Of a DNA stretch of 64,000 nucleotides, positions 406-52,288 are shown piece by piece. Source of the DNA: Planctomycetales bacterium (GTDB lineage: Bacteria; Planctomycetota; Phycisphaerae; SM23-33). The notes beneath the pieces were generated by a model, which did no database searches, was not told the origin of the DNA, and saw only the letters and a list, made by a program, of their open reading frames with translations. The translations under genes were made by a program, and so were the position numbers. The stretch spans positions 32,837-96,836 of the forward strand of contig JAUWNJ010000010.1 in NCBI GenBank assembly GCA_030612725.1, in the 5' to 3' direction. Each line of letters opens with the position of its first letter. Position 1 is the stretch's first letter.

Positions 406-428
406 GCCGGGGCAAGCAAGGAACGTAG

Positions 429-454
429 CATGGGCGTCTCGCCCATGTTTTTTT
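429..454 (+). terminator. Intrinsic terminator-like hairpin (catgggc-gtctc-gcccatg) followed by a T7 run
   Basis: Perfect 7-bp GC-rich stem with a 5-nt loop and a ttttttt run, 24 nt after the stop of the 4..405 ORF. It belongs to a repeat family also seen at 22577 and 41892. Confidence 0.55.
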
Positions 455-476
455 CACGGCCGGGACGCCCGTGCCA

Positions 477-2546
477 CTACTTCTCGGAAATCATCTTCTT
501 CGCCTTTGCCGCCAGGGGCGATTCGGGGTAATCCTTGACGATTCGCCGAAAAGTCTTTCGGGCAAGGTCGGTCTTTCGCATTTTGGTGTAGGCTTCGGCT
601 GACAGCATCAGCAGTTCCGGCGCGTAGTGGCTGCGGGGATTGACACGGATGAGTATCTGGGCCTGACGGGCGGCTGCGGCGTATTGCTTCCGCGACGTCG
701 CCAGTTTCGCGCGGATTAACGTCGAAAAACCCTCCAGTTTGTCGGTGGGAAATTCGTATTCCCATTTGTCCAAAGCCCCGGCTGCATCGTCAAACAATCG
801 CCGACGGAGGTAATCTTCGGCATGGCGGGCCAGGTCGCCTTTTCGGACGGCGGGTTTCATTTTCGCATCGCCTTTGACCGCCCCGGATGCTCGGTACGCT
901 TCGGCGGCCTTATCGTAATTTCCGCGATGGCGCCAGACGTCGCCGATACCGATTTTCGCTTCGCGGATTGCGCGATGCGTTGTCAGTGCGGCGTATTTTT
1001 TAATAGCGCGGGCGAAAATGCTCATAGCTCTGTCGATTTTATCATTTTCCAGGGCGATCTTTCCGGCGCGCACAAGCATCTCGGCTGACACGTCCGGCGC
1101 ATCGGTCATCTTCGCCGCTTTGACCAGTGCATCGACGGCCCGCCCCGGAGCGTCGGCGGTACGGATAAGCGCATCGGCGTAAATCCCCATCGCATCGCGC
1201 AGGACCGCCGAGGGCGCCTTGTTGCGAGCGATGAGTGCGTCGCCCGCGCGAATAACCGCCTCTTTCAGACCCGCGCGTTTGAAAATGATAACAGCCCCGG
1301 TGATGTCGCGCGAATCCGAAGCGGTAAAATCATAACCGGCTGCGATGCGTGCGTAATTGGCGGGAGGGTCCATGAGATTTTTTGCAACCTTATCCCACCG
1401 GCGCGATACGTATATGACGTTGGTCCGCGTGAGCGTCTGTGAGCCGATTTTAACCCTCAGCGTTACCTTATATCGCCCGTCGCGAAGATATACATGCTCG
1501 CATTTTTTATCCGAGGACTTCTGCCCGTCGCCGAAATCCCAATGGTATTGAACCTTGCCGCCGAATCGCCCCTTCAGCATGGCTTCAAATACGTACCGCT
1601 GAAAGTAGCGATTCGCCAGAAAGGTCTCCCCGGCGTGGCGCGGTATGAAATCGGCGTGCCGGCTCCGGCCATATCGTTCCAGGATACCGGGGGTCGCCCG
1701 ACGAACCGGCGCGAAGGCGCTGGGCGGAATTTTCCAAAGTCGCCGACCATTGGGCGTGCGCCATGCAGCCACAACCACCGGATTACCACCGGTGCCGACG
1801 TGATAGACCTTCAATTCGTGCAGGCCTTTGGAAAGTTTTATCCGTCCCTGCCTGACCGCACGACGCTGAGGACGATGATGCCGGCCATTGGAAACGATCA
1901 CCTTACCATCGACCAGCAGGAAAGAGGCGTCCCGGCTGGTGGTGGAAAAAATGTATTGCCCGTCGGCGGGGCAAACGAGATAACCCGTGAAGATGCTGCA
2001 TATCCGGTTCTGCGGGCCGAAGGGATTATAACCAAGGAAAATATCCCTGCGGAAGTCCCTGCCGAGCAGTTTTTTGCTTCGCTCGAAGATTCGTTGGACT
2101 TGCTTGAAATTCGCAATTCCCCCGCCGGTGTAGGCCCACGTCTCCATCAGCACGCCACGACGGATTTGCAGTTCCTGTTTCGGCGCCTCGGCCTTGGGAT
2201 TTCCGAAATAGAGGAAGTATTTTTTGATTGGCGGCTTCAGTTCGAACGCGACGCGGACGCTGTTGCCGGGGCCGACCATCAGCACTCGATGAGGCAGTAG
2301 CGTTCCGGTGGCGGTGGTTACGCGGATGTCGCGCCCGTCCGCGGCGGTAAGCCCGCCGGTCGGCATGGTAACGACGGCGATATCCCGGCCTGTTTTCAGA
2401 TTGGTCTTCGAAACGTCGCTCACCGTTACAGCCCGACGGTACGGCCAGTTATAATTCCACCAGCCTCCCTGCGCAGACACCGGCGCAGCCGCCGCCAGCA
2501 CCGCCGCAACGATGCAAATACGTAATGACCTGAAAACACTTTCCAT
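477..2546 (-). CDS. Secreted multidomain protein: signal peptide, DUF2341-like N-terminal region, PA14-like segment, PKD-like motif (YHWDFGDG), C-terminal TPR-like repeats
   Basis: 689-aa ORF with a hydrophobic N-terminal signal (AAVLAAAAPVSAQG), a GxxxCPADGxYxF PA14-like motif, YHWDFGDG, and an alanine-rich repeat-like C-terminus. Confidence 0.55.
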   Translation of the reverse strand: MESVFRSLRICIVAAVLAAAAPVSAQGGWWNYNWPYRRAVTVSDVSKTNLKTGRDIAVVTMPTGGLTAADGRDIRVTTATGTLLPHRVLMVGPGNSVRVAFELKPPIKKYFLYFGNPKAEAPKQELQIRRGVLMETWAYTGGGIANFKQVQRIFERSKKLLGRDFRRDIFLGYNPFGPQNRICSIFTGYLVCPADGQYIFSTTSRDASFLLVDGKVIVSNGRHHRPQRRAVRQGRIKLSKGLHELKVYHVGTGGNPVVVAAWRTPNGRRLWKIPPSAFAPVRRATPGILERYGRSRHADFIPRHAGETFLANRYFQRYVFEAMLKGRFGGKVQYHWDFGDGQKSSDKKCEHVYLRDGRYKVTLRVKIGSQTLTRTNVIYVSRRWDKVAKNLMDPPANYARIAAGYDFTASDSRDITGAVIIFKRAGLKEAVIRAGDALIARNKAPSAVLRDAMGIYADALIRTADAPGRAVDALVKAAKMTDAPDVSAEMLVRAGKIALENDKIDRAMSIFARAIKKYAALTTHRAIREAKIGIGDVWRHRGNYDKAAEAYRASGAVKGDAKMKPAVRKGDLARHAEDYLRRRLFDDAAGALDKWEYEFPTDKLEGFSTLIRAKLATSRKQYAAAARQAQILIRVNPRSHYAPELLMLSAEAYTKMRKTDLARKTFRRIVKDYPESPLAAKAKKMISEK

Positions 2547-22437: not shown

Positions 22438-22639
22438 TTTCGTGCTCCTTTCATGGGTTACTCATCCGGGCAGCCTGGATGACCGCCCCTGCCTTATATT
22501 TGACGCATAACTCCTCACGTTGGTCTCATAAAAATAAAAAAACTCGCAAGAAAGCCCAATGGATACAGGTACCGTAGCATGGCCGTCTCGGCCATGATTT
22601 CACGGGCGATGCGTAGCATCACTACGTGAGACGCCCGCG

Positions 22640-23884
22640 CTACTTCAAATACGCTCGTTCGACTTTCGTCAGGGCTGCAACGGTGTCGGCGATTTCCTCG
22701 TCCGTCCAGTTTTCGTGGATATGGATGAGGAAGTTGCGGGTTACCGCCGCTTCGCAGTTCGGCAGGTTCGGCGGCTCGTATGGGGTCGTCCACGGGTAGC
22801 CGCCGGCGCCGTAAGTGTTGCGATTGCGGAACCAGACGTGCTCCGCAGGTATATGACGATACGACGGCGAGGCGGGGATTCCTTCAGCGGCCAATGCTTT
22901 GGCGAAGGCGTCCTTATCGACGGTGAGTTTGTCGGCATCGACCGTCATTCGCATGAACCAGTAACTCGCCTTCGCGTCGGGAATGATTTTTCCAGGCGCG
23001 ACGGACTGAAGGGATTTTATCCCGTCGGACACAGCGGCTGCCACGGACTGCCGGCGTTCGACGATCCACGGTAGTTTTTTCAGTTGGACCCGCGCGATAG
23101 CGGCTGACAGTTCGTCGGTGTTGAGGTTCAGTCCGAGGCGGACGTTGTTTGGTTCATCCGTCCCGAATGGTTTTCCGCGGTCCATGAACCGCCTGGCCTT
23201 CCAGAATAAATCTTCGTTTCGTGTGAAGAATATGCCGCCCTGCCCGCCGCTGGCGTAGTGCTTTCCGTACATCGTGCTGAAAGCGGCGATGTCGCCGTGG
23301 GTTCCGACGCTGGAACCGTGATAGATAGCCCCATGCGCCTGTGCGGCGTCTTCGACGACGGACAGACCTTTCTCGCGGGCCAATTCCATTATCGGGTCCA
23401 TGTCCACCGGTTCGCCGAATATTGGGGCCACGACGATGGCCCGCGTGCGTTCTGTAATCGCGGCGGCGACCTGTTCGGGTCCGACGTTGAAGGAAAACTC
23501 GTTCGTGTCGGCGGGAACGGGTATGCAGTTCATCATCACTATAGGCATTACCCCGCCGGGGTCGGTTATGGGCGGGCAGACGACTTCGCTTCCCGGCTCC
23601 AGTTCCAGCGCCGCCAGCGCCGACAGCAACGCCGACGTGCCGGAATTGACGGCCTTGGCGAATCCCCCGCCGAGATGCTCGGCGAATTCTTTCTCATACT
23701 CCTGCTCGCGCTTGCCGCCGTAGCCGAAGGCCTCACCGGCAGCAATGGACTCGTCGAAGACTTCGACGGCGGCGGCCTTTTCCTTGTCTCCGAATAATCG
23801 CCTCGGCGGAAATGGTTTCTCACGCACCGCCACACCACCGTCAATCGCCAGTTTCTCGTCAGACTTGCTCATCATTAAATCCAT
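22640..23884 (-). CDS. DegT/DnrJ/EryC1/StrS-family PLP-dependent aminotransferase
   Basis: AVNSGTSALLSALAALEL...GSEVVCPPITDPG and downstream motifs are typical of sugar aminotransferases. Confidence 0.75.
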   Translation of the reverse strand: MDLMMSKSDEKLAIDGGVAVREKPFPPRRLFGDKEKAAAVEVFDESIAAGEAFGYGGKREQEYEKEFAEHLGGGFAKAVNSGTSALLSALAALELEPGSEVVCPPITDPGGVMPIVMMNCIPVPADTNEFSFNVGPEQVAAAITERTRAIVVAPIFGEPVDMDPIMELAREKGLSVVEDAAQAHGAIYHGSSVGTHGDIAAFSTMYGKHYASGGQGGIFFTRNEDLFWKARRFMDRGKPFGTDEPNNVRLGLNLNTDELSAAIARVQLKKLPWIVERRQSVAAAVSDGIKSLQSVAPGKIIPDAKASYWFMRMTVDADKLTVDKDAFAKALAAEGIPASPSYRHIPAEHVWFRNRNTYGAGGYPWTTPYEPPNLPNCEAAVTRNFLIHIHENWTDEEIADTVAALTKVERAYLK

Positions 23885-31654: not shown

Positions 31655-31683
31655 TTGACAATCTGCCACCCGCGTGAGATATT
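31655..31683 (+). promoter_or_regulatory. Sigma70-like promoter TTGACA-17-GATATT upstream of the small HNH gene
   Basis: ttgaca at 31655-31660, a 17-nt spacer, gatatt at 31678-31683; aaggag RBS at 31702-31707; ATG at 31714. Confidence 0.45.
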
Positions 31684-31713
31684 GTCGGTGGCTTTTAGGA
31701 AAGGAGCGTAACG

Positions 31714-31977: not shown

Positions 31978-32000
31978 TTGGATTAAACCGGTTTGATACG

Positions 32001-32186: not shown

Positions 32187-32348
32187 ACACGCGAATCCTG
32201 CGCATTACATTCTCCCTGTCCCAAGGCTACAGGTATTTCGGGGACAAATCAATCCGCCACTGTTGTTCCGCTTGATTCTTGATTTGTCCGGCGAATCCTG
32301 ATATGTAGTGCTGCTTCGAGATTGCAGCAGAACGTACATGAGGAATAG

Positions 32349-33689
32349 TTGAAAATGCCATTTATCGCCAATACAGATGAGCAGCGTGAGCAGATGCTCA
32401 ACGAGTCGGGCATGAGCGCCGAGGACCTTTTCGCCGATATTCCCGCCGATTTGCGATGCGAGCGGCTGAAAATTGGACGCGGTTTGAGCGAGCAGGAAGT
32501 CCGTCGGCACATGGCGGCGCTGTCGGACAAGAACGCGTCGGGGCTTATCAGTTTTCTCGGCGGGGGGTTCTACGACCACTTCGTACCGGCGGCCGTCGAT
32601 GCAATGGCCTCCCGAAGCGAGTTTTACACCGCGTACACGCCGTATCAGCCTGAAGTCTCGCAGGGAACGCTCCAGGCGATTTATGAATATCAATCCGCGA
32701 TATGCCGGCTTACGGAAATGGAAGTCGCCAACGCCTCGCTCTACGACGGCGGAACGGCTGTCTATGAAGCCGTGATGATGGCGATGCGGATTACCCGGCG
32801 AAATCGCGTTATCGTCGATGAGACCGTCAACCCGGTCTATCGAAAGATGCTGCGGTCGTACACGACCAACCTCGGTATCGAGTTCGTCCAGACGTCCTGG
32901 CACGACGGCCTGGCCGACCGCGAGAAAATCGCGGCAGAATTGAATGACCAGACGGCTGCGGTTGTCGTTCAGAATCCGAACTTCTTTGGCTGTCTCGACG
33001 ATTTCGCCGACCTGGCCGATGCCGCCCACAAGCACGGCGCATTGTTGATTGTATCGTGTTATCCGATTTCGCTGGGCATGGTCCAGACGCCGGGGCAGAT
33101 GGGGGCCGACATAGTCGTCGGCGAGGGTCAGAGCCTGGGTCTGGCGTTGTCCTTCGGCGGTCCTTACCTGGGGTTCATGGCCACTCGCAAAAAATTCGTC
33201 CGCAAGATGCCCGGAAGGGTCGTCGGGCGCACTGTCGATAGCGAAGGGCGGGGCGGATTCGTCCTGACGCTCCAGACCCGCGAGCAGCACATCCGGCGCG
33301 AGAAGGCCATGTCGAACATCTGCACGAACGAGGGCTTGTGCGCCCTGACGGCGACGATTTACCTGAGCCTTCTCGGAAAGGAGGGTTTGCGTGAACTTGC
33401 CCAGACCTGCGCCGACAAGGCCAACTACGCACAGAAGCGCCTGCTGGAAATACCCGGCGTAACGACGCATTTCCCCAACCGCTGGTACTTCAATGAATTC
33501 GTCCTGAGGCTGCCGGTTGCGTCGGCCCAGAGGGTTATCCGCCGATTGCTGGAGCGGGGAATCTCGGCTGGTTTCCCGTTATCGAGATACTACGACGATA
33601 TGGAAAACTCGCTGCTGGTGGCAGTTACCGAAAAACGCACAAAAGAGCAGATCGACCTGCTGGCGCACGCACTGGAGGTGTCGCTGTGA
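32349..33689 (+). CDS. gcvPA: Glycine dehydrogenase (decarboxylating) subunit 1
   Basis: N-terminal P-protein pattern (FIANTDEQREQML...FLGGGFYDHFVPAAVD...YTPYQPEVSQGTLQAI). Confidence 0.85.
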   Translation: MKMPFIANTDEQREQMLNESGMSAEDLFADIPADLRCERLKIGRGLSEQEVRRHMAALSDKNASGLISFLGGGFYDHFVPAAVDAMASRSEFYTAYTPYQPEVSQGTLQAIYEYQSAICRLTEMEVANASLYDGGTAVYEAVMMAMRITRRNRVIVDETVNPVYRKMLRSYTTNLGIEFVQTSWHDGLADREKIAAELNDQTAAVVVQNPNFFGCLDDFADLADAAHKHGALLIVSCYPISLGMVQTPGQMGADIVVGEGQSLGLALSFGGPYLGFMATRKKFVRKMPGRVVGRTVDSEGRGGFVLTLQTREQHIRREKAMSNICTNEGLCALTATIYLSLLGKEGLRELAQTCADKANYAQKRLLEIPGVTTHFPNRWYFNEFVLRLPVASAQRVIRRLLERGISAGFPLSRYYDDMENSLLVAVTEKRTKEQIDLLAHALEVSL

Positions 33690-35134
33690 AACTCATTTTT
33701 GAAAAATCGGTTCCTGGTCGGCGTGCGTATCGGCCCGCCGATAACGACATTGACGCGCCGGCGCGAATCCCGAAGAATTTCCTGCGCGACCGGCCAGCCG
33801 ATCTTCCGGAACTGTCCGAACTGGACGTAGTGCGACACTTTACCGAACTGTCGAACAGGAACTTCGGCGTCGATACGGGCTTCTACCCGCTCGGCTCGTG
33901 CACAATGAAATACAACCCCAAGGTAACCGAGCGCATCAGCCACTATCCGGGGTTCGTGCACTTACATCCGCTGCTGCCGCAACTTCCCGGCGGGGAAATG
34001 CTCGTCCAGGGGGCGCTGGCTGTGTTGCACGACACTGACATGATGTTGCGCGAAATCTGCGGAATGGCCGCCTTTACAATGCAGCCTCTGGCAGGAGCAC
34101 ACGGCGAACTGACCGGTTCGATGATTATCGCGGCCTATCACGCAGACAAGGGCAACGACAAGACGACCATCCTTATCCCCGACAGCTCGCACGGGACCAA
34201 CCCGGCAAGCGCCGCCACCGCAGGATACGACGTGCAAACGGTCCCGTCCGACGATACCGGCGTGATGGACATTGACGCCCTGGCAGAAGTGATGAACGAC
34301 AAGGTCGCAGCCGTCATGCTCACCTGCCCCAATACACTTGGCCTGTTCAATCCGCGAATAAAAGAAATCTGCAAAATGGCCCACGATGTTGACGCACTGG
34401 TGTACTACGACGGAGCGAACCTCAACGCTCTGCTGGGACGATGCCGGCCCGGCGACATCGGATTCGACCTTGTGCACGTGAATTTGCACAAAACCTTCGC
34501 CACACCCCACGGCGGCGGCGGGCCTGGAGCAGGACCGGTCGGAGTCTGCGAAAAACTCATCCCATTCCTGCCAACCTCCGTCATCGCCGACAAACCAGAC
34601 GGGTCGTACTGGCTGGACTACGACAGACCAAAATCCATCGGGTATATCGCGCCGTTCTACGGAAACTTCGCCGTCATACTCAAAGCCTACATATATACCC
34701 TCATGCTGGGGACAGACGGGCTGGAGCGGGTCTCGGAAAACGCCGTGCTTAACGCCAATTACGTCAAAGAAAAACTCAAAGCCCATTTCGACCTGCCATT
34801 CGGACAGACCTGCAAACATGAGTTCGTTCTGTCGGCGTCGCGCCAGGCCAAAAACGGCGTCCGGGCGCTGGACATCGCCAAGGCCTTGATTGACCGGGGT
34901 TTCCACCCGCCGACGGTTTATTTCCCGTTAATCGTCCACGAAGCGATGATGATCGAGCCGACAGAAACCGAAAGCAAAGAGACGCTCGACACCTTCATCG
35001 CCGCGATGATCGAGATCGCCGAACTCGCCCAAAGCAACCCGGAAGAATTAACCGGATGCCCGCGAACGACGCCGGTCGGAAGACTCGACGAAACACTCGC
35101 AGCACGAAAACCAGATTTGGCGTCTTTGGAGTGA
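33686..35134 (+). CDS. gcvPB: Glycine dehydrogenase (decarboxylating) subunit 2
   Basis: GSCTMKYNPKV ... PLAGAHGELTG ... DSSHGTNPASA, the PLP-dependent P-protein C-terminal subunit. Overlaps the gcvPA stop by 4 nt. Confidence 0.85.
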   Translation: MKLIFEKSVPGRRAYRPADNDIDAPARIPKNFLRDRPADLPELSELDVVRHFTELSNRNFGVDTGFYPLGSCTMKYNPKVTERISHYPGFVHLHPLLPQLPGGEMLVQGALAVLHDTDMMLREICGMAAFTMQPLAGAHGELTGSMIIAAYHADKGNDKTTILIPDSSHGTNPASAATAGYDVQTVPSDDTGVMDIDALAEVMNDKVAAVMLTCPNTLGLFNPRIKEICKMAHDVDALVYYDGANLNALLGRCRPGDIGFDLVHVNLHKTFATPHGGGGPGAGPVGVCEKLIPFLPTSVIADKPDGSYWLDYDRPKSIGYIAPFYGNFAVILKAYIYTLMLGTDGLERVSENAVLNANYVKEKLKAHFDLPFGQTCKHEFVLSASRQAKNGVRALDIAKALIDRGFHPPTVYFPLIVHEAMMIEPTETESKETLDTFIAAMIEIAELAQSNPEELTGCPRTTPVGRLDETLAARKPDLASLE

Positions 35135-35157
35135 TATCCTGTCCGACTTTAATGATG

Positions 35158-35260
35158 GGTGCCATGCTTTCGCCCGCAGCGCAGCGGAGGGCGTAAGCAT
35201 GTTGTGGCGTAAATCATGCCTACACGCTTCGCTGCGCTGCGCGTGAAGGCATGGCACCCT
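35158..35260. repeat. About 28-nt imperfect inverted repeat (gggtgccatgctttcgcccgcagcgcagcg / cgctgcgctgcgcgtgaaggcatggcaccc) forming a long intergenic hairpin
   Basis: Read directly from the sequence between gcvPB and lpd. Confidence 0.5.
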
Positions 35261-35277
35261 GCACTAGGGATACTGTT

Positions 35278-36648
35278 ATGGGAAATTACGACGTAGTTAT
35301 TCTCGGCGGGGGTCCGGGCGGATACGCCGCCGCTTTGCGAGCGGCCTTGCGCGGCGCGAAGGTCTGCTGCGTCGAAATGGGACACATCGGCGGAACCTGC
35401 CTGAACGTCGGATGCATTCCCACCAAGGCAATGCTCCACGCAAGCGAGATTTTTCATCAGAGCAACCACGCATCCGCTTTCGGACTGAATTGTTCCTGCG
35501 TCGGCGTGGACGGTCGGGAATACATGGCCCGCGTCGCAAAAGTCGTCGCCGGACTGCGAAAGGGCGTCGAAGGACTGCTCAAGGCCCGTAAGGTGGACGT
35601 TCTCCGAGGCAAGGGGCGATTGACCGCTCCGGATACCATATCCGTCGAAACCGACAATGGCTCCGAGCAGGTCAAAGCACGTTCGATTATCATCGCCACG
35701 GGTTCGTCGCCCGCACGCCCCGGCTTCCTGCCATGGGATTCGCCGCGAATAATGACCACCAACGAAGCCACCACCGCCGAGAGCCTTCCCGAAAGCGTTA
35801 TTATCATCGGTGGAGGCGTTATCGGGTGCGAATTCGCAACCGTCTATTCCGAACTGGGCATCGAAACGACCGTTATCGAGATGCTCGACAGACTTGTGGC
35901 AAACCTCGACGCCGAAGCATCAAAGATAATCGCCCGAAGCCTCAAGAAACGCGGCGCGACCGTCCTGACCGGAAGCAAAATCGTCAGCGTCAAAGCAGAC
36001 GATTCGAGCGTTACAGTCGAAACCGAAGATGGAAAAATCATCGAAGCCGACTACGCAATTGCAGCTGTCGGGCGAATACCCAATACCGAAGACATCAGCG
36101 CCGAAGATATTGGTGTGGAAATGGACGGCGGAATCATTCGCGTTGATGACCGCTGCCGGACGAATGTCGAGGGCGTCTATGCCGTCGGCGATGTGGCTGA
36201 GACTCGCCAGTACGCCCATCTTGCGACTCGAATGGGCATCGTCGCAGCCGACAACGCCACGGGAAACGACGCCCGCGACGACCGGACAATCGTACCGGCG
36301 GGCGTCTATACGCACCCGGAAGTCGCCGCCGTCGGAGAGACCGAAGAGAAAGGCGAAAATGTCCGCGTATCGGCATTTCCGCTCCGCGCCAGTGGTATTG
36401 CACACGCCTACGGCGAGATTGACGGACAGGTAAAAATTGTCGCCGACGCCGAAACCGGAAAAATCCTCGGCTCGCTGGTTATCGGTCCGCACGCCACCGA
36501 CGTTATCGCCGAAATCGCACTGGCGATGCGGTATGGGCTGACCGTTGAGAATATCGCCGAGACCATCCACGCTCATCCGACCTTCGCCGAAGCCGTCGCC
36601 GAAGCATCCGAAGCGTGGCTGGGACTACCGTTACACACATTGCGATAA
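35278..36648 (+). CDS. lpdA: Dihydrolipoyl dehydrogenase (L protein)
   Basis: MGNYDVVILGGGPGGYAAALRAA...GGTCLNVGCIPTKAM contains the FAD-binding and redox-disulfide motifs. Confidence 0.85.
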   Translation: MGNYDVVILGGGPGGYAAALRAALRGAKVCCVEMGHIGGTCLNVGCIPTKAMLHASEIFHQSNHASAFGLNCSCVGVDGREYMARVAKVVAGLRKGVEGLLKARKVDVLRGKGRLTAPDTISVETDNGSEQVKARSIIIATGSSPARPGFLPWDSPRIMTTNEATTAESLPESVIIIGGGVIGCEFATVYSELGIETTVIEMLDRLVANLDAEASKIIARSLKKRGATVLTGSKIVSVKADDSSVTVETEDGKIIEADYAIAAVGRIPNTEDISAEDIGVEMDGGIIRVDDRCRTNVEGVYAVGDVAETRQYAHLATRMGIVAADNATGNDARDDRTIVPAGVYTHPEVAAVGETEEKGENVRVSAFPLRASGIAHAYGEIDGQVKIVADAETGKILGSLVIGPHATDVIAEIALAMRYGLTVENIAETIHAHPTFAEAVAEASEAWLGLPLHTLR

Positions 36649-36651
36649 ATA

Positions 36652-38334
36652 ATGTCGAAATTGATTTATTCAGACCTCGGACGCAAATCCTACGAATCGG
36701 CGTTGGTGATTCAACGCCGGTTACTGGAAGAGGTAAAGGCCGACGAGAACTCACCGGCGTATCTCCTGCTCCTCGAGCACGACCCGCCGGTTATAACGCT
36801 TGGTCGGAGCGCCGAGAGCGAGCATCTCCTTGCCTCGCCGGAGCGCCTGGAGCGCGAGGGCGTCGAGGTCCATAAATCCGCTCGCGGCGGGGATGTAACC
36901 TACCACGGTCCGGGACAACTGGTGGGATACCCGATTATGCAAGTTGCAAGTCGGGGAAGGAGCGTCCACGGGTACGTCCGCGACCTGGAAGAAGTCCTCA
37001 TCCGCCTGTTGGGACGCTTCGGCCTGAAGGGCCGACGGCGTAAGGGCCTCACCGGCGTATGGGTCGGCGACGAGAAAATCGCCGCTATAGGCGTAGCCGT
37101 CAGTCGATGGGTCGCCTGGCATGGGTTCGCGCTGAACGTCTCGACGGACCTGTCGCATTTCGATTTCATCGTGCCCTGCGGCATCGACGGGTGCAAAGTA
37201 ACCAGCATGGAGAAACTTCTCGCATCAGAAGTCTCAATTCAGGAAGTGAAACAACAGTTGGTAGAATGTCTGGTCGAGGTGTTCGGATTCGAACCTGTAG
37301 GCTGGAACGGAGCGAAGCGGAGTCCCACCTCAATTTCTACTCCGTCCCAGCCTACAAGTCGCGGACGGTTTCCTGTGTGGTTGCGTCGGCGTATTCCGCC
37401 TGCCGGCAGGAGCGCCGAGGTGCGGCGACTACTGGCCGATTTGAAACTCGAAACGGTCTGCTCCAGTGCGAACTGCCCGAACATGTCGGAATGTTTCGGT
37501 CGCGGCACTGCTACATTTATGATCCTCGGAAACACCTGCACCCGCTCATGCCGATTCTGCGCGGTTCCGACCGGAAAACCCGCAATGCCGCGAGATGACG
37601 AACCGGCCGCAGTGGCAGAGGCATCCGAGCGGCTTGGCCTGAAGCACGTCGTAATTACTTCAGTAACCCGCGACGACTTGCCCGACGGCGGGGCAGGACA
37701 CTTCGCCAAAACCATCCGCGCCGTCCAGGCCCGCCTTTCGCAAACCACAATAGAAGTCCTCACGCCCGACTTCGGTGGCGACGAAGCCGCAATTGACACC
37801 GTCCTTGCCGCCCGGCCTGACGTTTTCAACCACAATATCGAAACCGTTCCGCGTTTGTATTCGCATGTCCGCCCGCAGGCCCGGTACAAACGCAGCCTCG
37901 ACGTGCTCAAATATGCAAGCAGCAGGCTGGCCCGGGGTGGAGCAGGTAGGCTGGGCCAGAGCGGAGCGGAGTCCCACCTTCCTTATGCAAACGAACAAAA
38001 TGCAGAACAAAGGTGGGACTCCGCTTCGCTCCGGCCCAGCCTACGGAAACTCTTTACCAAGAGCGGTCTGATGGTGGGTCTGGGCGAAACTATCGACGAA
38101 ATCCGCGACGTGATGCGGGATTTGCGCAAGGCAGGGTGCAACATTCTGACCATCGGCCAATACCTCGCGCCGTCGCCGGAGCACGTACCGATAGCCCGAT
38201 TCGTCGAACCGTCCGAATTTGACGCCATGCGAACCGAAGCGCTGGCGATGGGCTTTACCGCCGTCGCCGCCGGACCCTTCGTTAGAAGCAGTTACCGCGC
38301 TGAAGAGGTTTTGAAAAAGCAAGCGGCCTTATAA
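36652..38334 (+). CDS. lipB-lipA: Fused octanoyltransferase (LipB) and lipoyl synthase (LipA) single ORF, carrying in-frame palindromic element insertions
   Basis: N-terminus matches LipB (VITLGRS...[19 protein letters not shown]). The C-terminus matches LipA ([29 protein letters not shown] ... [22 protein letters not shown] ... [11 protein letters not shown]). The junction and an internal loop contain copies of a repeat element. Confidence 0.65.
37946..38044. repeat. 99-nt palindromic REP/MITE-like element (35-nt arms gtaggctgggccRgagcgRagcggagtcccacctt) inserted in-frame inside the LipA-coding region
   Basis: Arms at 37946-37980 and 38010-38044 are reverse complements with 2 mismatches. 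The encoded extra peptide is roughly [37 protein letters not shown], located between conserved LipA blocks. Confidence 0.6.
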
Positions 38335-39210
38335 CTCCAACAGTCTTATGACGTTTTCGCGCGCGACTTTCTGGAAAATTTCCTCGCTGATTCTCTTTTC
38401 ATCGCGGAATTTCAGCAGCAAATCGACCAGCGGCGTCGGCGTTCCGGGCGCACAGATGTCCGTACCGAACATCAGCCGATCCTGGAATTCGTCGAGGAAT
38501 TTCGCGGCATAGTCAGGGTCGCGCGCAAGGGCGTTGCATCCGCTGTTGGCCGATAAGTCGCCGTAAAGGTTCGGATACCGCCGGAAGAGTTTGGGTATGA
38601 CGCCCTCTTCTTTGACGGGATAATTCGGATACCCGTCGCGGTCGGCGGGTGTGGCGAGCGGGGACATCTCCGCCCAGAACACCTGCGAGTGCCCGAAGAA
38701 TTTCAGGTCGGGAAACGTCTGTAGCGACCTTTCCAGTTGCGGCAGACCCGGATCGTCGTACAGGCCGTAGGTCCCGCCTATCTTCGCGCTTATGTGGAAC
38801 GTCAACGGGAAACCGACCTCCTGGACGTGCTTAAAAAGGTTCTGCACCATCAGGTCGCCGAATGGCAGGTTGGCGGTAACTTCGCCGACGCCCTTGCATC
38901 CCAGGTCGCGGTAGTAGCGGAGAATTTTGCCAAGCGGCGCATCGGGCGAATTGGTCATAGCACGCGGGTCAAGGTTGCAGAACGGAACGAACCGACCGGG
39001 GTACTTCCGGCATATCTCGATAATCTCTTCGTTGGCCTGCGGCGCAAAGACGCATTCGGGGCTGACCCCAGGCAGCAGGATCCCCTTTTCGATACCGACC
39101 GCATCATGGCGTTTGATGAGGTCTTCGGGCATGGTATAGGGCGTTTCCCGTCTCTCGTCGCGTGGCGGTCCTGGGAACATTCTTGTGTGTCCGTGAACAT
39201 CTATAAACAT
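38329..39210 (-). CDS. Amidohydrolase-2-family metal-dependent hydrolase (TIM barrel)
   Basis: MFIDVHGH start motif (the metal-binding HxH) and a downstream pattern consistent with an amidohydrolase-2 fold. Internal ATG chosen as start. Confidence 0.5.
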
Positions 39211-39224
39211 TGGTGCTGCTCCTT

Positions 39225-40238
39225 TCATTTTCCTCTGATTAGTCCTTTGAGGCCTTTTTCGTCCAGTGCGTCGGCGCATTTGGCGGCCGATTTTTCGATT
39301 GGATCGTCGCTGTCGAGTTTTTCGTTTATCAGGTCGCGGACCCGCTTGCGGTCGCCCCTGCCGGCGCAGGTCAATTTGACCATTCCCAGGCTAAGGATGG
39401 CTTCGACTCGTACAGCCCGATCAGCGTGGTTGGCTACGAGGTTGAAAATATCTCCGGGGTGAGGCCCGTTAGCGCCGCTTTCGGCGCGTGCGAATGTCCG
39501 CATGACATTGTCGAGGTCGGTATAGATGCTGCTCATGTCCCCCAGGCCTGCGCGGTACTCCCGGACCGCGTTGACGCGTTCGGGCTTGTTCCATTTTGCG
39601 TAGAGATGCCCCAGTAATTCGCAGGCGATTTTCTGCAAACCTATCCCGGTTCGCACGATGTCAAGCCTGGCCCGCTCGTCAATCAGATGTTGCCCCAGCG
39701 ACAGAACATCGAACATGCGCTTTTCGGCGGCGGGATAACTACCTTCGCCTTTGCCGATGTAGTGAGCGAACAGCATCCGAGGAGCATCCACGATGCTCTG
39801 AAACCGTTCGGCCTCAACCGGTCTGTCGTATGTAACTTTCATCTGTTCCGAGAAGTAAAATGACATATCTTTTTTGGCGGCGCCGGCGGCGATGGGCTTC
39901 GCGACGCTGTTCAACAAGGCTACATCGTCGTCCGTCAGACGATACTCGTCTTTCATTAAGGCGTAATAGTGTTTGAACATCGCCTGTATCGCCTCGGTGT
40001 TTTTATCGTAGGATTTCATCGCCTGCCTGTAATCATCGGCGGCGTTTCCCTCGCCGTCGGGCGCAGACGGCAGCAGGGTTGTCAACGGTTCGGAAGGCCT
40101 CTGAAGCTTCAACATCCCCGGCCCGGTCGTCGCTTGCGTCGGATCCGTCGGCGACGGAAAAAACAGCACCGTTACCAGCACGATAATTACAAACGCACCG
40201 AAAATACCCGCCAGAATCCAGCCAAGCCTGTTACCCAT
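39225..40238 (-). CDS. Hypothetical membrane-anchored protein
   Basis: N-terminal TM helix (ILAGIFGAFVIIVLVTVLFF). No family. Confidence 0.35.
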   Translation of the reverse strand: MGNRLGWILAGIFGAFVIIVLVTVLFFPSPTDPTQATTGPGMLKLQRPSEPLTTLLPSAPDGEGNAADDYRQAMKSYDKNTEAIQAMFKHYYALMKDEYRLTDDDVALLNSVAKPIAAGAAKKDMSFYFSEQMKVTYDRPVEAERFQSIVDAPRMLFAHYIGKGEGSYPAAEKRMFDVLSLGQHLIDERARLDIVRTGIGLQKIACELLGHLYAKWNKPERVNAVREYRAGLGDMSSIYTDLDNVMRTFARAESGANGPHPGDIFNLVANHADRAVRVEAILSLGMVKLTCAGRGDRKRVRDLINEKLDSDDPIEKSAAKCADALDEKGLKGLIRGK

Positions 40239-40298
40239 ATGTTATTCTCCTGTTCAATTGGCGATTGACAATCGGCAATTGACAATTTCATTTGTGGT

Positions 40299-43100
40299 TC
40301 ATTCTTTTATCGGCGTCAGGTACATGGTGCCGAGGTTTTCCGGGCTGTAGAAGTATCGCACCGCGCCGGCCCAGCTTGATGCTTCGGACTCGGCGGTTGC
40401 GAATCGCGTGAAATTGATTCCCCACAACGGTTCGGTCCCGTCCGGGCCGAAGGCTTTCAGCGGGATCGCCAATTCGACGACCCAGAGTTTTTTATCTTTG
40501 GCGACGGCGGAACGGACCCGTACAGGCCAGGGCTTGACTCTTGCCGGTTCCGCGCCGATACCGCGCTCGGCGAGGATCACGCCATTGCACTTTACCACGA
40601 GATGATACAAATCGGCGGCGCTTTTTGCCTTCCGGCCCGGATCGATAATCAGTTCCACCATGTCCTCACCGGCGGCGAGGAACTGCTCGTATCGGACGAT
40701 GTTATCGGCGCGGGCGTGGAGTCTGTCCATTTTCGGCTCGTCGCAGCGGAACGCCACGTACAGGTTTTTATCGTCGCGCGTAACAAAAGCGGATGTCCGG
40801 CGACGGGCAAGCCCTTTTCCGCCCCTGCCCCGTCGGCCCAGCACGATAAAGGCTCCGGCGGTATTTCCTGCTCGCAGCGGCCAATCGTCAAGATTCCCGT
40901 CAATGACAATCGCTTTGGCGACGGTTCCGGCCCGGATGAACGGAACGCAGGCGAGGAGGTCTTCGGTTCGGCCCGGGGTGGTGGTCATCGCCAGTGGGAT
41001 ATTTATTTTCGCGTCTGAACCCGTTGGGATACCGACGCCTTCGGCGGCAAGGGTCAGGACGGTAAGTTCGCTTCCTTTGAGTCGTTTTTGGATTCGGGCG
41101 GTTGTCGGTTTCCACCCTGCCGGAAGATCGGCGATTCGCAACTCCACATCAACCGGATTGGTCTGTTCGTTGTAAAGTTCCGCTCGGACAACAGCGGCGA
41201 AACGCCCGTGGCCAAGCATTTTCACGCGCGAACGAATCCGCTCGACACGAACCCGGCAGGTAAGTTGGCGAAGTTGTTTCCAGGCGAGTTGTTCGGACAG
41301 GAGTTGGCGACGGGAAACATTTTCAGGATGGACGGCCGAAAGGACTTCTTCGGCGAGGAGTCTTCGGGCGGATGTCCAGACTTCGCCGTCGGCGACCCAT
41401 CCGCGAAATCTCGCGTCGAGGTGATGGTCCCCGGCTGCGTCCAGGCAGGCATAATGGACCATTGTATCGATCATTACCCGCGCGACGGCGGCTCTTTGCC
41501 TTTGTCGCAGCAACCAGAGATAGGCGACATCCTGCAAACCCCGACGGAGGCGCTTGAGGCGAACCGAAGGAAAAACCGTATCGCCGTCAGAGGTCTTACC
41601 CGGATAAAACAAGCGGTCTTCGTTACCGGCCTGCTTTGACCAGTTGAGCACTTCGGGTATGAAGACGCCGGGGCAGTCGTATTTCATCGCTATCCATGCC
41701 AATGCGCGAACGTCGGCGGGCGAACTCAACACGCCGCATCCGCCCAGGTACGGAGGCCTGCCCGGACGAAGCCAGAGACCGGCCAAACGGTGGCTTCGGG
41801 CGAGTCGTTTCGCATCGGATGGGTTAACCATATGCGCCGGTGGCGCGTACATATCGGCCAACGATGCAAAATCCTTCGGAGGGTTCCCAAAACGTAGCAC
41901 GGGCGGGACGCCCGTGTTACGTAGCATGGGCGGGACGCCCGTGTTACGCCGAGCCGGTGGAAGTTCGGTCAAAATCGGCGTTTCAGGTCCGGTCAAACGA
42001 ACCAGACGCGCAAGAGATGAATAACGCTCATAAGCCCGTTGCCCGCTCGAATCGGACCTCGGCCAGACGAACAGGCGGTCGCCGAACCCGATGCTCTTGA
42101 AATGCTCGACCGTCCCAGCCAGAACAGCCCCGGCGGTCTTGCGATAGGCATCCGCAGCGATCCCGCCGTAATTCGCCGGTTCAGGCCAGCCGGTACGGAA
42201 TGGCGCAGGCCAGGCCGATACGCCGACGCGGTCGTCAAAGGCCGAGCCGTCGAGGTATGGCTTGACGATGTTGTCGTAATCATCCCACCGAAGCGCCACC
42301 GCTCCGGACATGTCACGTTTAATGGTCGGATGGATGGACTTATCGAACAGGTCCACGCGATGCTCGTGCGCCAGACGCATCAATCGGCGGATAACAGTCA
42401 GGCCCGCGCGGACATCCTCTTTCGCCGCGTCGAGACGGACGGGAACTGCTCCGCCAAAGGTTGAAAAAATCGTCTCGTAACCAAATCCGCCCATGCACGC
42501 GACCGGCTTGGCGTCGGGAAGGACGAAGTCGTACACCTTCAGCGCCACCTTCGCTCGCGTCAGGCCTCGGCTCGACGAGGCCGTAATTGCGCCGACGTAA
42601 TCGCCCGGAAGCCTGTCACGCCGGACGGCTACATCCACCCAGACCGCCAGCCGCTCGCCGGGACCGACGTCAAACGAATCGGACGGCTTCATCGGTTGCA
42701 ACGCGTCGTAGAACCTTACCGGCCTGACGGGTGCGTCGGTCAGGAGGAGATACCATGCCGGATAACGCTCAATCGCCACAGGCAGCATTCGGAACAATTT
42801 AACGTTCTCGACGCCGATCTTCCGCCCGCCGAAGCCGGTAAGCGGGCTGACGGACAGTTTTACTTCTTCAAGCCCGTCGGCAGGAGCGTCCAGAACCAAC
42901 TGAAAACTGACCGTTTCGTTGGCGGCTGAAAAGAGATTGACGCTCCGCGAATCAGCGTCCCATACACTGCTGACCCTGGACGCCTGCGTCTGCTCGGTCA
43001 GGTGTACCATGTCCCCCGCCACCCAGAGGTGCCCCGGGCCGGGCCGACCACAGCCGGCGAGGCTCAGGCACGCAATCAATAATGTCAGTCGTCGCAACAC
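40299..43100 (-). CDS. Large (933 aa) hypothetical lipoprotein
   Basis: Signal peptide plus lipobox (LSLAGC). Contains an internal in-frame tandem duplication caused by a 27-nt palindromic element. Confidence 0.45.
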   Translation of the reverse strand: MLRRLTLLIACLSLAGCGRPGPGHLWVAGDMVHLTEQTQASRVSSVWDADSRSVNLFSAANETVSFQLVLDAPADGLEEVKLSVSPLTGFGGRKIGVENVKLFRMLPVAIERYPAWYLLLTDAPVRPVRFYDALQPMKPSDSFDVGPGERLAVWVDVAVRRDRLPGDYVGAITASSSRGLTRAKVALKVYDFVLPDAKPVACMGGFGYETIFSTFGGAVPVRLDAAKEDVRAGLTVIRRLMRLAHEHRVDLFDKSIHPTIKRDMSGAVALRWDDYDNIVKPYLDGSAFDDRVGVSAWPAPFRTGWPEPANYGGIAADAYRKTAGAVLAGTVEHFKSIGFGDRLFVWPRSDSSGQRAYERYSSLARLVRLTGPETPILTELPPARRNTGVPPMLRNTGVPPVLRFGNPPKDFASLADMYAPPAHMVNPSDAKRLARSHRLAGLWLRPGRPPYLGGCGVLSSPADVRALAWIAMKYDCPGVFIPEVLNWSKQAGNEDRLFYPGKTSDGDTVFPSVRLKRLRRGLQDVAYLWLLRQRQRAAVARVMIDTMVHYACLDAAGDHHLDARFRGWVADGEVWTSARRLLAEEVLSAVHPENVSRRQLLSEQLAWKQLRQLTCRVRVERIRSRVKMLGHGRFAAVVRAELYNEQTNPVDVELRIADLPAGWKPTTARIQKRLKGSELTVLTLAAEGVGIPTGSDAKINIPLAMTTTPGRTEDLLACVPFIRAGTVAKAIVIDGNLDDWPLRAGNTAGAFIVLGRRGRGGKGLARRRTSAFVTRDDKNLYVAFRCDEPKMDRLHARADNIVRYEQFLAAGEDMVELIIDPGRKAKSAADLYHLVVKCNGVILAERGIGAEPARVKPWPVRVRSAVAKDKKLWVVELAIPLKAFGPDGTEPLWGINFTRFATAESEASSWAGAVRYFYSPENLGTMYLTPIKE
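41892..41947. repeat. Tandem 2x 27-nt palindromic element (acgtagcaYgggcgggacgcccgtgtt) inside coding sequence
   Basis: Two adjacent copies give the peptide repeat RNTGVPPMLRNTGVPPVL in the minus-strand ORF. It belongs to the same family as the hairpins at 424-447 and 22577-22598. Confidence 0.55.
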
Positions 43101-43152
43101 AGACCCTGGATTGTACCGGGTCAGGCCCGGAAAATAAAACGGCAGGGAAGAA

Positions 43153-43302
43153 TTGGTTGACTGGATTATCTGGTTGACTGGTTGACTGGTTGATTGGTTG
43201 ATTGGTTGACTGGTTGATTGGTTGACTGGTTGATTGGTGAATCGGTTTTGCTTTTCGTTTCTGTTGTTGCCTAAACCCTATTCCCTAGTCCCAAGTCCCT
43301 AT
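43153..43302. repeat. Composite repeat array (left): about 11 tandem 8-nt units ggttgaYt, followed by a ctaaaccctattccctagtcccaagtccctatc block
   Basis: Read directly. It is the reverse-complement counterpart of the array at 52447-52591. Confidence 0.6.
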
Positions 43303-43307
43303 CTTTT

Positions 43308-43583
43308 TCACACATCCCCGTTTTTGGCGATTGCCTCATCTTCGTAAGGCCCCAGCAGCCTGCGGTAGCACTCCAACTGACAACAGGTCAGCACGCCGCC
43401 GATGAAATCCTGAGCGCGCGAATACCGCATTCCCTTTTCCTCCAGGTATCGCTTGATAATCGAATAGATAATGTAATTGAGATGCCCCTTGGCGGCATCG
43501 TCGTTCAGGGCGGACAACTTCGCAACGACATCCCCAATGGCCTGTTCGTATTGACCCCTGTCTTCTTGTGGTATGTACGGCAT
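43308..43583 (-). CDS. Small hypothetical protein (about 91 aa)
   Basis: ORF with a gggagg RBS 7 nt upstream of the MPYIP start. Lower GC. No family. Confidence 0.35.
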   Translation of the reverse strand: MPYIPQEDRGQYEQAIGDVVAKLSALNDDAAKGHLNYIIYSIIKRYLEEKGMRYSRAQDFIGGVLTCCQLECYRRLLGPYEDEAIAKNGDV

Positions 43584-43634
43584 CAATCTGCCTCCCATCT
43601 ATCCGTCCGTGATGCATATCCCGTTATTTAAGGA

Positions 43635-43686
43635 AACTATAATAACCGAATCGTTATTATAGTTTTTCGCCAAAAACTATAATAAC
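43635..43686. promoter_or_regulatory. Operator-like perfect palindrome AACTATAATAAC-N6-GTTATTATAGTT plus a third half-site, upstream of the small gene 43308..43583
   Basis: aactataataac at 43635-43646, gttattatagtt at 43653-43664, aactataataac again at 43675-43686. AT-rich, about 50-100 nt upstream of the minus-strand start codon. Confidence 0.5.
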
Positions 43687-43708
43687 AAAGAATGCCCACG
43701 ATTACCCG

Positions 43709-44731
43709 TTACCGTAAGTTTGAAATCTCGATGAGTTTTTCCAGTGCTTTGGCGGCTTTTCCTGAATCGATTGACTCGGAGGCCGGGGCGATACCGGCGG
43801 CGATGGAATCGACCCTGTCTGCGACGACCAGGGCGGCTGCGGCGTTGAGAACGACAATGTCGCGGTCTGGACCGGTCTTGCCGGCGAGGACGGCGCGGGT
43901 TCGCTCGGACGATTCTTCCGCCGATTTTACCGATAAGTCCGCCATAGTCGCTCTGGCAAGGGAAAAATCTTCAGGCTGGACGGTGAAGGTGGTGATTTCG
44001 CCGTCTTTCAGTTCGGCGATGCGCGTCGGACTGGTGATGGAGATTTCGTCCAGCCCGTCGTCTGCGTGAACGACCATCGCCCGTTGCGAACCGAGGGCCT
44101 TGAGAACCTCGGCGATTGTCTCGATGAGAGCGCCGTCGAAGACGCCCATGAGTTGCCTCTTCGCCCCGGCTGGGTTTGTCAGGGGTCCGAGAACGTTGAA
44201 GATCGTTCGGATGCCGAGCGCTTTGCGAACCGGAACGGCGTATTTCATTGCGGGGTGATGTTTGACGGCGAAGCAGAATCCAATGTTGGCCTCGGCGAGG
44301 CATCGGGCGACTGTTTTCTCATCGGCGTCGATGTTAACGCCGAGCGCCGCCAGCACGTCGGCCGATCCGCTGGCGCGGGTGTGCGTGCGGTTTCCGTGCT
44401 TGGCGACGGTTACTCCCGCTCCGGCGGCGACCAGGGCGGCGGCCGTTGAGACATTCAGCGTACTCATCCCCGTCCCGCCGGTGCCGCAGGTGTCGATAAC
44501 GTCCAGCCCGCCGGTGTCGATCTTCACCGATTGGGCGCGCATGGCAGTGGCCGCTCCTGTAATCTCCGCGACGCTCTCGCCGCGCGTCGCCATCGCCACC
44601 AGCAGGCCTGCAATCTGCGCCTCGCTCCACGCGCCGCTCATTATCTGCCCGAAGGCGTCTCTCGCCTGCTCGCGGGTCAAACCTTCGCCCATCGCAGCGC
44701 GAAGAACCTCTCTGTATTCCATCTCTGACAT
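43709..44731 (-). CDS. trpD: Anthranilate phosphoribosyltransferase
   Basis: DTCGTGGTGMSTLNVSTAAALVAAGAGVTVAKHGNR and downstream TrpD motifs. The internal MSEMEYREVL start is preferred. Confidence 0.8.
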   Translation of the reverse strand: MSEMEYREVLRAAMGEGLTREQARDAFGQIMSGAWSEAQIAGLLVAMATRGESVAEITGAATAMRAQSVKIDTGGLDVIDTCGTGGTGMSTLNVSTAAALVAAGAGVTVAKHGNRTHTRASGSADVLAALGVNIDADEKTVARCLAEANIGFCFAVKHHPAMKYAVPVRKALGIRTIFNVLGPLTNPAGAKRQLMGVFDGALIETIAEVLKALGSQRAMVVHADDGLDEISITSPTRIAELKDGEITTFTVQPEDFSLARATMADLSVKSAEESSERTRAVLAGKTGPDRDIVVLNAAAALVVADRVDSIAAGIAPASESIDSGKAAKALEKLIEISNLR

Positions 44732-44822
44732 GATATTTTCCTCATTGCGTTGAAGAATCTTCTGTTGTCTGAACGGTACATTGTGAATTATAGTCTTCAC
44801 TCCATTTGGAGCAACTGTATCT

Positions 44823-52249: not shown

Positions 52250-52288
52250 GGTATCACCGGGCTTTCGATTATCCCTTGATCGCGCTGT

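Follow-up and report, generated by a model that had tools for sequence, protein, structure and literature searches.

A tandem pair of GTAG-tagged palindromic repeats in frame within a conserved lipoprotein gene of a Phycisphaerae bacterium, a probable tolerated insertion

How does a hairpin repeat of a kind usually found just downstream of genes come to lie, twice in succession, inside a long coding sequence, and what becomes of the gene that receives it? This question is raised by positions 41894–41947 of a 64-kb window (the whole stretch of DNA that was analysed, 64,000 nt of contig JAUWNJ010000010.1 from the Phycisphaerae assembly GCA_030612725.1), which lie within a predicted lipoprotein gene on the minus strand. 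Repetitive extragenic palindromes (REPs) are small non-autonomous hairpin elements, linked to and thought to be mobilised by single-copy REP-associated tyrosine transposases (RAYTs, of the Y1/HUH type) in other bacteria, and they usually occur as inverted doublets (REPINs) just downstream of genes. We consider it likely that the 54 nt at this locus are two abutting GTAG-tagged REP copies inserted in frame in a DUF4091/GH123-like lipoprotein gene, where they are probably a tolerated passenger.

The initial annotation had described a 27-nt head-to-tail pair at 41892–41947 that gives rise to an in-frame peptide duplication, and both the sequence and its translation were found as described. The copy ACGTAGCACGGGCGGGACGCCCGTGTT (41892–41918) is directly followed by ACGTAGCATGGGCGGGACGCCCGTGTT (41919–41945); Tandem Repeats Finder reported a period of 27, 2.1 copies and 96% matches (score 107) at 41892–41948, and a search of the window for the 27-mer with up to 3 mismatches returned exactly these two copies, with 0.00 expected from 100 shuffles. 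The duplicated peptide NTGVPPMLR-NTGVPPVLR is read in open reading frame (ORF) 40299..43100(-), where the insert follows codon 385 and residues 386–403 are REP-encoded. Its protein context is LPPARR-NTGVPPMLR-NTGVPPVLR-FGNPPKDF, the added 18 residues being NTGVPPMLRNTGVPPVLR, with NTGVPPMLR (residues 386–394) encoded by unit A and NTGVPPVLR (residues 395–403) by unit B. The presence of a tandem REP pair within this coding sequence is confirmed.

The best phase of the 27-nt unit is GTAGCAYGGGCG-GGA-CGCCCGTGTTAC, at 41894–41920 and 41921–41947, and in this phase units A and B (Table 1) differ at 1 of 27 positions. Each unit consists of a 12-bp stem with one wobble or mismatch pair, built around a perfect 8-bp G+C-rich core stem, and a 3-nt loop, with the tag GTAG at the 5′ end on the + strand and GTAA on the gene strand. 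The core of unit B is a perfect 8-bp stem that extends to 12 bp if one mismatch or wobble pair is allowed, and in the stem of unit A a single C·A mismatch on the gene strand corresponds to a G·U pair on the + strand. This is the anatomy of REPs, a GT[AG]G tag followed by an imperfect palindrome within 20–40 nt, seen as GTAGCAYGGGCG-GGA-CGCCCGTG(TTAC) at 41894 and 41921. Direct reading showed the unit to be open in four of the six reading frames, the two closed frames being those through TAG or TAA; since 27 is also a multiple of three, the reading frame is preserved on insertion. The pair is not an inverted doublet with a short spacer, as in a REPIN, but a direct one with a TCC loop in both units on the gene strand, and it can still fold as one long hairpin because each unit is symmetric. 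A miniature inverted-repeat transposable element was rejected as a candidate, as the element is a single short palindrome without separate terminal inverted repeats and without a target-site duplication.

Table 1. Positions and sequences of the host gene and of the REP units in the window.
Feature	Position	Strand	Description
Host gene	40299..43100	-	933-aa ORF, predicted lipoprotein; DUF4091 / GH123-N-like, CBM9-like C-terminal region
REP unit A	41921..41947		+ strand: GTAGCATGGGCG-GGA-CGCCCGTGTTAC; gene strand: GTAACACGGGCG-TCC-CGCCCATGCTAC
REP unit B	41894..41920		+ strand: GTAGCACGGGCG-GGA-CGCCCGTGTTAC; gene strand: GTAACACGGGCG-TCC-CGCCCGTGCTAC
Extragenic REP	425..447	+	GTAGCATGGGCG-TCT-CGCCCATG, then T7; also given as GTAGCATGGGCGTCTCGCCCATG
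Inverted partner REP	455..477	-	GTGGCACGGGCG-TCC-CGGCCGTG
Extragenic REP	22574..22596	+	GTAGCATGGCCG-TCT-CGGCCATG; also given as GTAGCATGGCCGTCTCGGCCATG
Inverted partner REP	22601..22643	-	GTAGCGCGGGCG-TCT-...CGCCCGTG, 20-nt nested insertion at 22609-22628

The family to which the units belong is also found outside coding sequences. The 64-kb window holds six units at three loci, two of which are tail-to-tail doublets at the 3′ ends of genes; the same REP build recurs at 425, 455(-), 22574 and 22601–22643(-), and matches to a 12-mer taken from the unit's 5′ half number 9 across the window, where 1.0 would be expected. The first doublet (425–447 with 455–477) is REPIN-like and lies between convergent genes: its + strand copy is terminator-like for the gene ending at 405 on that strand, and its partner directly follows the TAG stop (477–479) of ORF 477..2546(-), sharing the first base of the stop codon. 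In the second doublet, the GTAG tag of the minus-strand REP contains the TAG stop codon of ORF 22640..23884(-). The initial annotation had assigned terminator-like hairpins at 424–447 and 22577–22598 to the same family as the coding units. The kinship holds for both, but a terminator scan flagged only the first as terminator-like, as hairpin 427–449 with its T-run; at 22574–22596 the scan found no terminator-like site and no T-run.

At both extragenic doublets (474–479 and 22640–22643) the TAG stop of the minus-strand gene lies within AAGTAG at the 5′ edge of the REP. In ORF 22640..23884 the stop coincides with the TAG of the GTAG tag; in ORF 477..2546 it stands immediately 5′ of a GTGG tag with one base in common. 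At these sites the REP may supply, or have replaced, the native stop. The nested 20-nt insertion ATGCGTAGCATCACTACGTG (22609–22628) sits between stem arm and loop and is itself a mini-palindrome with GTAG...CTAC.

The status of the coding copies as an insertion follows from the comparison with orthologous genes that the initial annotation had proposed. The window protein was aligned with 22 homologues, one of which (P0001) is the same protein as called by NCBI, with a shorter gene model. Among the homologues, only P0001 has the 18 residues with the duplicated peptide; the 21 others, more distant orthologues of 44–74% identity, lack them and read LPPD-PPAQTGW-PP.DF, without gap variation at the insert point. 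At the DNA level, two orthologues of 70% identity, L001 and L002, have an empty site, and removal of the 54 nt from the window yields LPPARRFGNPPKDF, which aligns to LP(LD)PPARTGWKPPKDF. As the net difference from the orthologues is 15 residues, it resolves into an 18-residue insertion and an unrelated 3-residue indel. The insert lies between ...CTCGGC and GTTTTGGG..., without duplication past an ambiguous GT, and the site is bordered by ...ACTTCCACCGGCTCGGC on one side and GTTTTGGGAAC... on the other. The orthologues thus do without the insert, its 54 nt are a multiple of three, and the ORF that contains it is intact and constrained.

These data also bear on the simplest alternative, an ordinary slippage duplication of native coding sequence with a chance likeness to intergenic hairpins, a notion suggested by the near-identity and direct abutment of the two units. 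In that case the orthologues should retain one copy, but both are missing from them, and a native tandem duplication was rejected on this ground. Moreover, the unit matches a dispersed family at 12–23 positions, with the excess of 12-mer matches noted above, and the same 23-mer is present at at least 120 loci of other genomes, which leaves this alternative a practically negligible probability.

Full-length homologues of the gene that received the insert number in the hundreds in Phycisphaerae and Planctomycetota, and some are named DUF4091 proteins; in Pfam, the window protein weakly matches the GH123 N-terminal domain and CBM9. As judged from these homologues, the predicted frame is evidently a real, conserved gene. 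Wherever a column of the 23-sequence alignment is fully conserved, the window protein has the common residue, and its ORF is intact. Direct reading of the N-terminus, MLRRLTLLIACLSLAGC, identified a lipobox-like LAGC, which makes the earlier label of lipoprotein plausible. An AlphaFold2 model made from the same alignment had a mean predicted local distance difference test score (pLDDT) of 73.8. The pLDDT fell below 50 for exactly residues 386–403, which contain only a 3-residue helical turn and otherwise no regular secondary structure, and the 10-residue blocks 371–380 and 411–420 averaged 88–89. In the model, the insert fits a surface loop between well-modelled elements.

A different insert occupies the same site in a sister genome. 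The sister protein P0122 (GCA_030631085.1) belongs to the 90% cluster of the window protein, and contig L003 of that assembly is collinear with window positions 29937–46023 at ~91% nucleotide identity. Between the same flanks, at L003 4757–4810, this contig has the 54-nt sequence GTAACACGGGCGTCTCGCCCGTG-AAAAAAAG-CATGGGCGAGACGCCCATGTTAC, encoding NTGVSPVKKSMGETPMLR. It is a tail-to-tail inverted doublet of the REPIN type, with TCT/AGA loops and an A-rich A7G spacer, and its architecture is that of window 425–477 read on the minus strand. Outside the insert, the ratio of nonsynonymous to synonymous substitution rates (Ka/Ks) between the window and L003 genes is 0.22 (0.15 upstream, 0.29 downstream), which indicates that the host gene is under purifying selection; a pseudogene was rejected, given this ratio and the intact ORF. 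Within the insert, 12 of 18 codons differ between the two genomes. The low ratio outside and the divergence inside together suggest that both lineages kept a working gene while the insert was remodelled. The view of the initial annotation, that an intergenic-type palindrome is tolerated in frame within a coding sequence, is therefore supported by the orthologues that lack the insert, the extragenic members of the same family, the intact ORF and a Ka/Ks of ~0.22.

The two inserts can be connected by simple steps. The L003 doublet contains two CGCCC direct repeats, and removal of the 27 nt between them yields GTAACACGGGCGTCTCGCCCATGTTAC. This product agrees with the first of the window units, in gene-strand order, at 25 of 27 positions, approximately the background divergence of the two genomes, and also reproduces the CAC...ATG stem mismatch of that unit. 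We propose that a 54-nt REPIN-type doublet, presumably mobilised by a RAYT, was inserted once, before the split of the two sister lineages. In the window lineage, a 27-nt in-frame deletion between the CGCCC direct repeats would then have left a single symmetric 27-nt unit, and a recent 27-nt slippage duplication would have restored 54 nt; such a recent duplication would account for the two window units differing at only one base. Throughout, the insert would most likely have been a tolerated, near-neutral passenger in a surface loop.

Alternatively, the two lineages may have received their inserts independently, either because REP/RAYT insertion favours the site or because a REP already present draws in others, with the window tandem representing two insertions. 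The architectures indeed differ, the window having a direct tandem with TCC loops and L003 a tail-to-tail doublet in which the loops are TCT/AGA and the spacer is A7G, and REPs of this family cluster, with abutting direct copies elsewhere (e.g. L116, L083 and L089). However, the boundaries and the length of 54 nt are identical in both genomes, the deletion product of L003 matches the window unit at nearly all positions, and the single difference between the two window units is as expected for a recent duplication, so that we regard independent insertion as unlikely. The collinear contig likewise bears on the suggestion that the tandem is an assembly or consensus artefact at a palindrome, or that the population is mixed in the number of copies. 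Assembly can go wrong at palindromic repeats, and the window apparently comes from a metagenome-assembled genome (MAG), its closest matches being MAGs. The 54 nt are shorter than a typical read, however, and in L003, from an independent assembly, the site is occupied by an insert of equal length. In addition, the frame is kept open, and the copies differ by one base, which collapse or expansion rarely produces, making an artefact very improbable.

The lipoprotein gene of L003 has a further in-frame insert of 30 nt, CGACCTGTCGGGGCGAAGCCCGGCGTAGCC (TCRGEARRSP), at L003 4896–4925, corresponding to window position ~41812, which the window lacks. Within it are a GTAG and a small hairpin with a GNA loop, but it could not be assigned to the family of the 54-nt inserts; no further copies were found in the window or L003.

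Whether the insert does anything for its host was considered from its predicted folding. The gene-strand RNA of the window insert gave -34.6 kcal/mol (z = -2.6) and the opposite (+) strand -44.3 kcal/mol (z = -6.4), and the gene-strand RNA of the L003 insert gave -49.3 kcal/mol (z = -10.6). The insert is thus predicted to place a strong hairpin in the mRNA. The hairpin pair might end some transcripts as an intrinsic terminator, hold up RNases or make translation pause between the GH123-like and CBM9-like parts, or the proline-rich loop might have been exapted. Besides the strong folding in both genomes, such a role would fit with a consensus scan that flagged the downstream hairpin on the gene strand, CACGGGCGTCCCGCCCGTG followed by CTACGTTTTG (4 T), as terminator-like, and with the retention of an insert of exactly 54 nt at the site in both lineages. 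The coding copy nevertheless lacks the features of an intrinsic terminator, as its T-tract is only 4 T long and it lies mid-gene, with 530 conserved codons following, and terminator-like sites are not enriched in the region (3 found against 4.1 expected from shuffles). The difference at 12 of 18 codons between the sisters implies that neither the peptide nor the exact RNA is conserved, the orthologues do without the insert, and the many unrelated genes in which the family is inserted speak for toleration. We therefore consider a functional role quite unlikely.

Several points weigh against the proposed history of a single insertion, its remodelling and its neutrality. Reverse polarity, gene conversion from other REP copies and independent insertions at a hot-spot also fit the data, and the direction between inverted doublet and tandem cannot be polarised, because no third lineage with an occupied site was found; a metagenome scan with the conserved left flank CTGAAAYRCCGATTTTGACNGAACTTCC for further alleles of the site gave 0 hits. 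There is no clear target-site duplication around the 54-nt insert, and the tandem is known from assembled sequence. The low pLDDT over the insert would be expected in any case, because no aligned homologue covers it, and a function of the hairpin or of the peptide is possible. Finally, a phmmer search of the window and of 120 loci with the family core, using an approximate E. coli RayT sequence and the domain of locus L101 as queries, found no RAYT in the 64-kb window and matched only L101 among the 120 loci. A regular expression for HUH/Y motifs gave no match either, the pattern evidently being too strict.

The family is a widespread one. The degenerate 23-mer GTRGCAYGGSCGNNNCGSCCRTG, the core of GTAG/GTGG-tagged REPs, was found at at least 120 loci in species-representative genomes. 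The hosts among the matches listed are Planctomycetota (Phycisphaerae, Tepidisphaerales, Planctomycetaceae and Pirellulaceae), Verrucomicrobiota (Opitutaceae, Kiritimatiellia, Lentisphaeraceae and Chthoniobacteraceae), Acidobacteriota, Sumerlaeota, Hydrogenedentota and Armatimonadota, with single matches in Dehalococcoidia and Ignavibacteria, and MAGs of at least six phyla share the core GTGGCACGGGCGTCCCGCCCGTG in nearly identical form (loci L004–L123). Such breadth is unusual because REPs are usually lineage-specific, and it points to horizontal spread or else to a cognate RAYT whose recognition site is very strongly conserved. Among the matches listed there were 41 tail-to-tail doublets, 29 symmetric 27-nt units and 17 direct pairs, some of them abutting, and at several loci long ORFs contain copies between Pfam domain matches.

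A link with RAYTs comes from the same genomes. The Y1_Tnp domain (PF01797) at L101 scored 25.2 bits against a cut-off of 23 and has hairpins of the family on both sides, and its homologues are stand-alone proteins of ~200 aa that bear the JGI name 'REP element-mobilizing transposase RayT'. Two distinct genes, represented by L126 and by L127/L128, encode RayT homologues with GTAG-tagged hairpins of the same build on both sides, those of L127 being within two mismatches of the search pattern. One further gene (L124, L125) has inverted GTAG-tagged hairpins on either side, as read from its printed flanks.

Three loci are examples of copies within genes: at L021 3080–3143 (a Humisphaera sp. MAG) a REP doublet is in frame in dnaE, in the finger domain of the DNA polymerase III alpha subunit (VAWASRPCIPNPESTGETPMPP), and at L099 1326–1390 (a Phycisphaeraceae MAG) another is in frame in alaS, in the core of alanyl-tRNA synthetase (SGTGVSPVLETSSPRGTGVPPV), with Pfam domain matches on both sides of each doublet. 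Locus L101 (a Verrucomicrobia MAG, VFJO01000280.1) has one stop-free frame at 97–2340, which starts with part of a class-I aminoacyl-tRNA synthetase (the first 254 profile positions of tRNA-synt_1) and continues with a REP, the RAYT-like Y1_Tnp domain (~1816–2100), a REP cluster (2130–2260) and then the synthetase motif VLDTWFSS; a REP-encoded peptide of ~20 residues, VGQASRLSPENDHGRDARATF, is present on both sides of the RAYT domain. It seems that at L101 an essential gene has taken up a whole 'REPtron' in frame, or alternatively the gene is disrupted or the contig chimeric.

A wider proposal would be that the lipoprotein site is a live record of REP evolution under frame constraint, and that one ancient or horizontally spreading REP/RAYT system has seeded peptide loops (dnaE, alaS and a ValRS-like gene) far more often and more widely than a 2013 survey of GTAG-tagged REPs showed. 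We offer this tentatively, and hold it to be the less probable outcome.

The window contains other repeats besides those of this family. Another GTAG-tagged palindromic family, distinct from the first (GTAGGCTGG...CCAGCCTAC; with 44-nt and 20-nt arms), is in frame within ORF 36652..38334(+), a fused LipB-like/radical-SAM (lipoyl synthase-like) gene, at 37946–38044 and 37293–37359; one palindrome lies in the interdomain linker (aa 214–236) and one within the radical-SAM part (aa 432–465), and L003 has shorter or different versions of both. The initial annotation had called the lipoprotein insert a second case of a palindrome within a coding sequence, which is consistent with the existence of this other one, probably the first case that was meant. 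Just upstream of the start of the lipoprotein gene (43100), the 8-nt unit TGGTTGAC is repeated in tandem ~10.5 times at 43154–43238, and 65 nt of this array are missing from L003, so that the copy number differs between the sister genomes. A+T-rich perfect hairpins with 13-bp and 15-bp stems and a common arm (GTTATTATAGTTTTT/AAAAACTATAATAAC) at 43634–43686 sit between this upstream repeat region and ORF 43709..44800(-). An imperfect inverted repeat at 35150–35266 (52-nt arms, 81% complementary, 13-nt spacer) is intergenic between ORFs 33686..35134 and 35251..36648, and L003 lacks ~135 nt of it. Short tandem and inverted repeats are densely clustered at 52199–52850 and 55703–55812, among them TAGGGCG (5.7 copies), AACCAGTC (5.4 copies), TTCCCAATCG (9.4 copies) and CACAAAGG-type inverted repeats, the latter adjoining a tRNA at 55811–55884. 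A scan of the whole window at Rfam gathering thresholds found only two tRNAs and no RNA family at the hairpins, and a permissive Rfam scan of 41800–42050 gave a best E of 0.78 or worse, far below threshold.

For annotation, these results mean that residues 386–403 are REP-derived and not native protein sequence, that many 'HGRDARAT/GTGVPPV'-type peptides in the proteomes of the Planctomycetes-Verrucomicrobia-Chlamydiae (PVC) superphylum and of Acidobacteriota would have the same REP origin, and that gene callers and aligners should handle such peptides as mobile-element insertions. The REP pair in the lipoprotein gene opens no new class of system. It is one more clean and polarised case in which a selfish hairpin repeat becomes new coding sequence of a conserved enzyme and does not inactivate it, polarised in the sense that the distant orthologues are empty and that two sister lineages have differently built inserts, and the turnover between sister lineages at one site is useful material on the rearrangement of REP doublets.

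Among known systems, the classical analogue of the insert, by its behaviour, is the group of Rickettsia palindromic elements (RPEs), which Ogata et al. reportedly found in 2000 in frame within protein-coding genes. RPE-1 is ~100–150 bp long and of unrelated sequence, occurs in reduced obligate-intracellular genomes and has no GTAG tag or RAYT link. Both are selfish palindromes in frame in conserved genes, with a tolerated added peptide and an occupancy that varies between close relatives, a resemblance of behaviour and not of family membership. In-frame RPEs are discussed in PMC3733652 and PMC1779305. Rho-independent terminators are resembled by the copy at 427–449, a G+C-rich stem followed by T7 after the end of a gene, but not by the coding copy with its tract of 4 T, nor by the copy at 22574–22596, which is without a T-run.

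Closer relations exist with REPIN/RAYT systems (Nunvar et al. 2010, PMC2817692; Bertels & Rainey 2011, PMC3116915). Inverted doublets that can fold as one long hairpin are present at window 425–477 and 22574–22643 and at L003 4757–4810, and related genomes contain PF01797 genes with GTAG hairpin flanks (L101, L126–L128). In contrast to these systems, the coding copy in the window is a direct tandem, no RAYT was seen in the window, and the 23-mer core is nearly identical across several phyla, whereas classical REPINs are lineage-specific.

The closest precedent is the work of Di Nocera, De Gregorio & Rocco 2013 (BMC Genomics 14:522, PMC3733652), who defined super-families of GTAG-tagged REPs; a full-text literature search for the DNA core and for 'HGRDARAT' returned no paper. 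The survey reported GTAG REP families in the PVC superphylum, with Opitutus terrae highly enriched, and REPs within genes in several species, more than half of such inserts being dimers or groups that encode 20–30 residues and many of the genes concerned being involved in replication, repair or tRNA synthetase functions (PMC3733652). Its Additional file 3 lists ~35 intragenic copies of GTAG-19 in O. terrae, singles and dimers, which encode GTGVPPV, (H)GRDARAT, TGGTPVP, WHGRPAR and RAGRPCH, with a direct dimer GTGVPPV...GTGVPPV in the TonB-dependent receptor Oter_0772 and copies in several glycoside hydrolases (PMC3733652). These peptides are translations of GTGGCACGGGCGTCCCGCCCGTG / CACGGGCGTCCCGCCCGTG and its complement, the core of the window units, and from the peptides listed in that file we infer identity with the GTAG-19 family, a match that is strong but indirect. 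GTAG-19 and the window family share a GT[AG]G tag followed by a short G+C-rich stem-loop, and GTAG-19 copies are mostly extragenic, 3′ of genes and often dimeric, as are the units at two of the three window loci. They differ in that the host here belongs to the Phycisphaerae (Planctomycetota) and not to Opitutus, in that the window pair consists of full 27-nt symmetric palindromes that abut without a spacer, and in the tags of the window units, GTAG on one strand and GTAA on the other. Insertion of what is probably the same repeat family within genes has therefore already been described for other bacteria, and what the present locus adds is a Phycisphaerae host and this particular gene, a spacer-less tandem of two symmetric units, and a comparison of sister lineages that shows turnover at one site.

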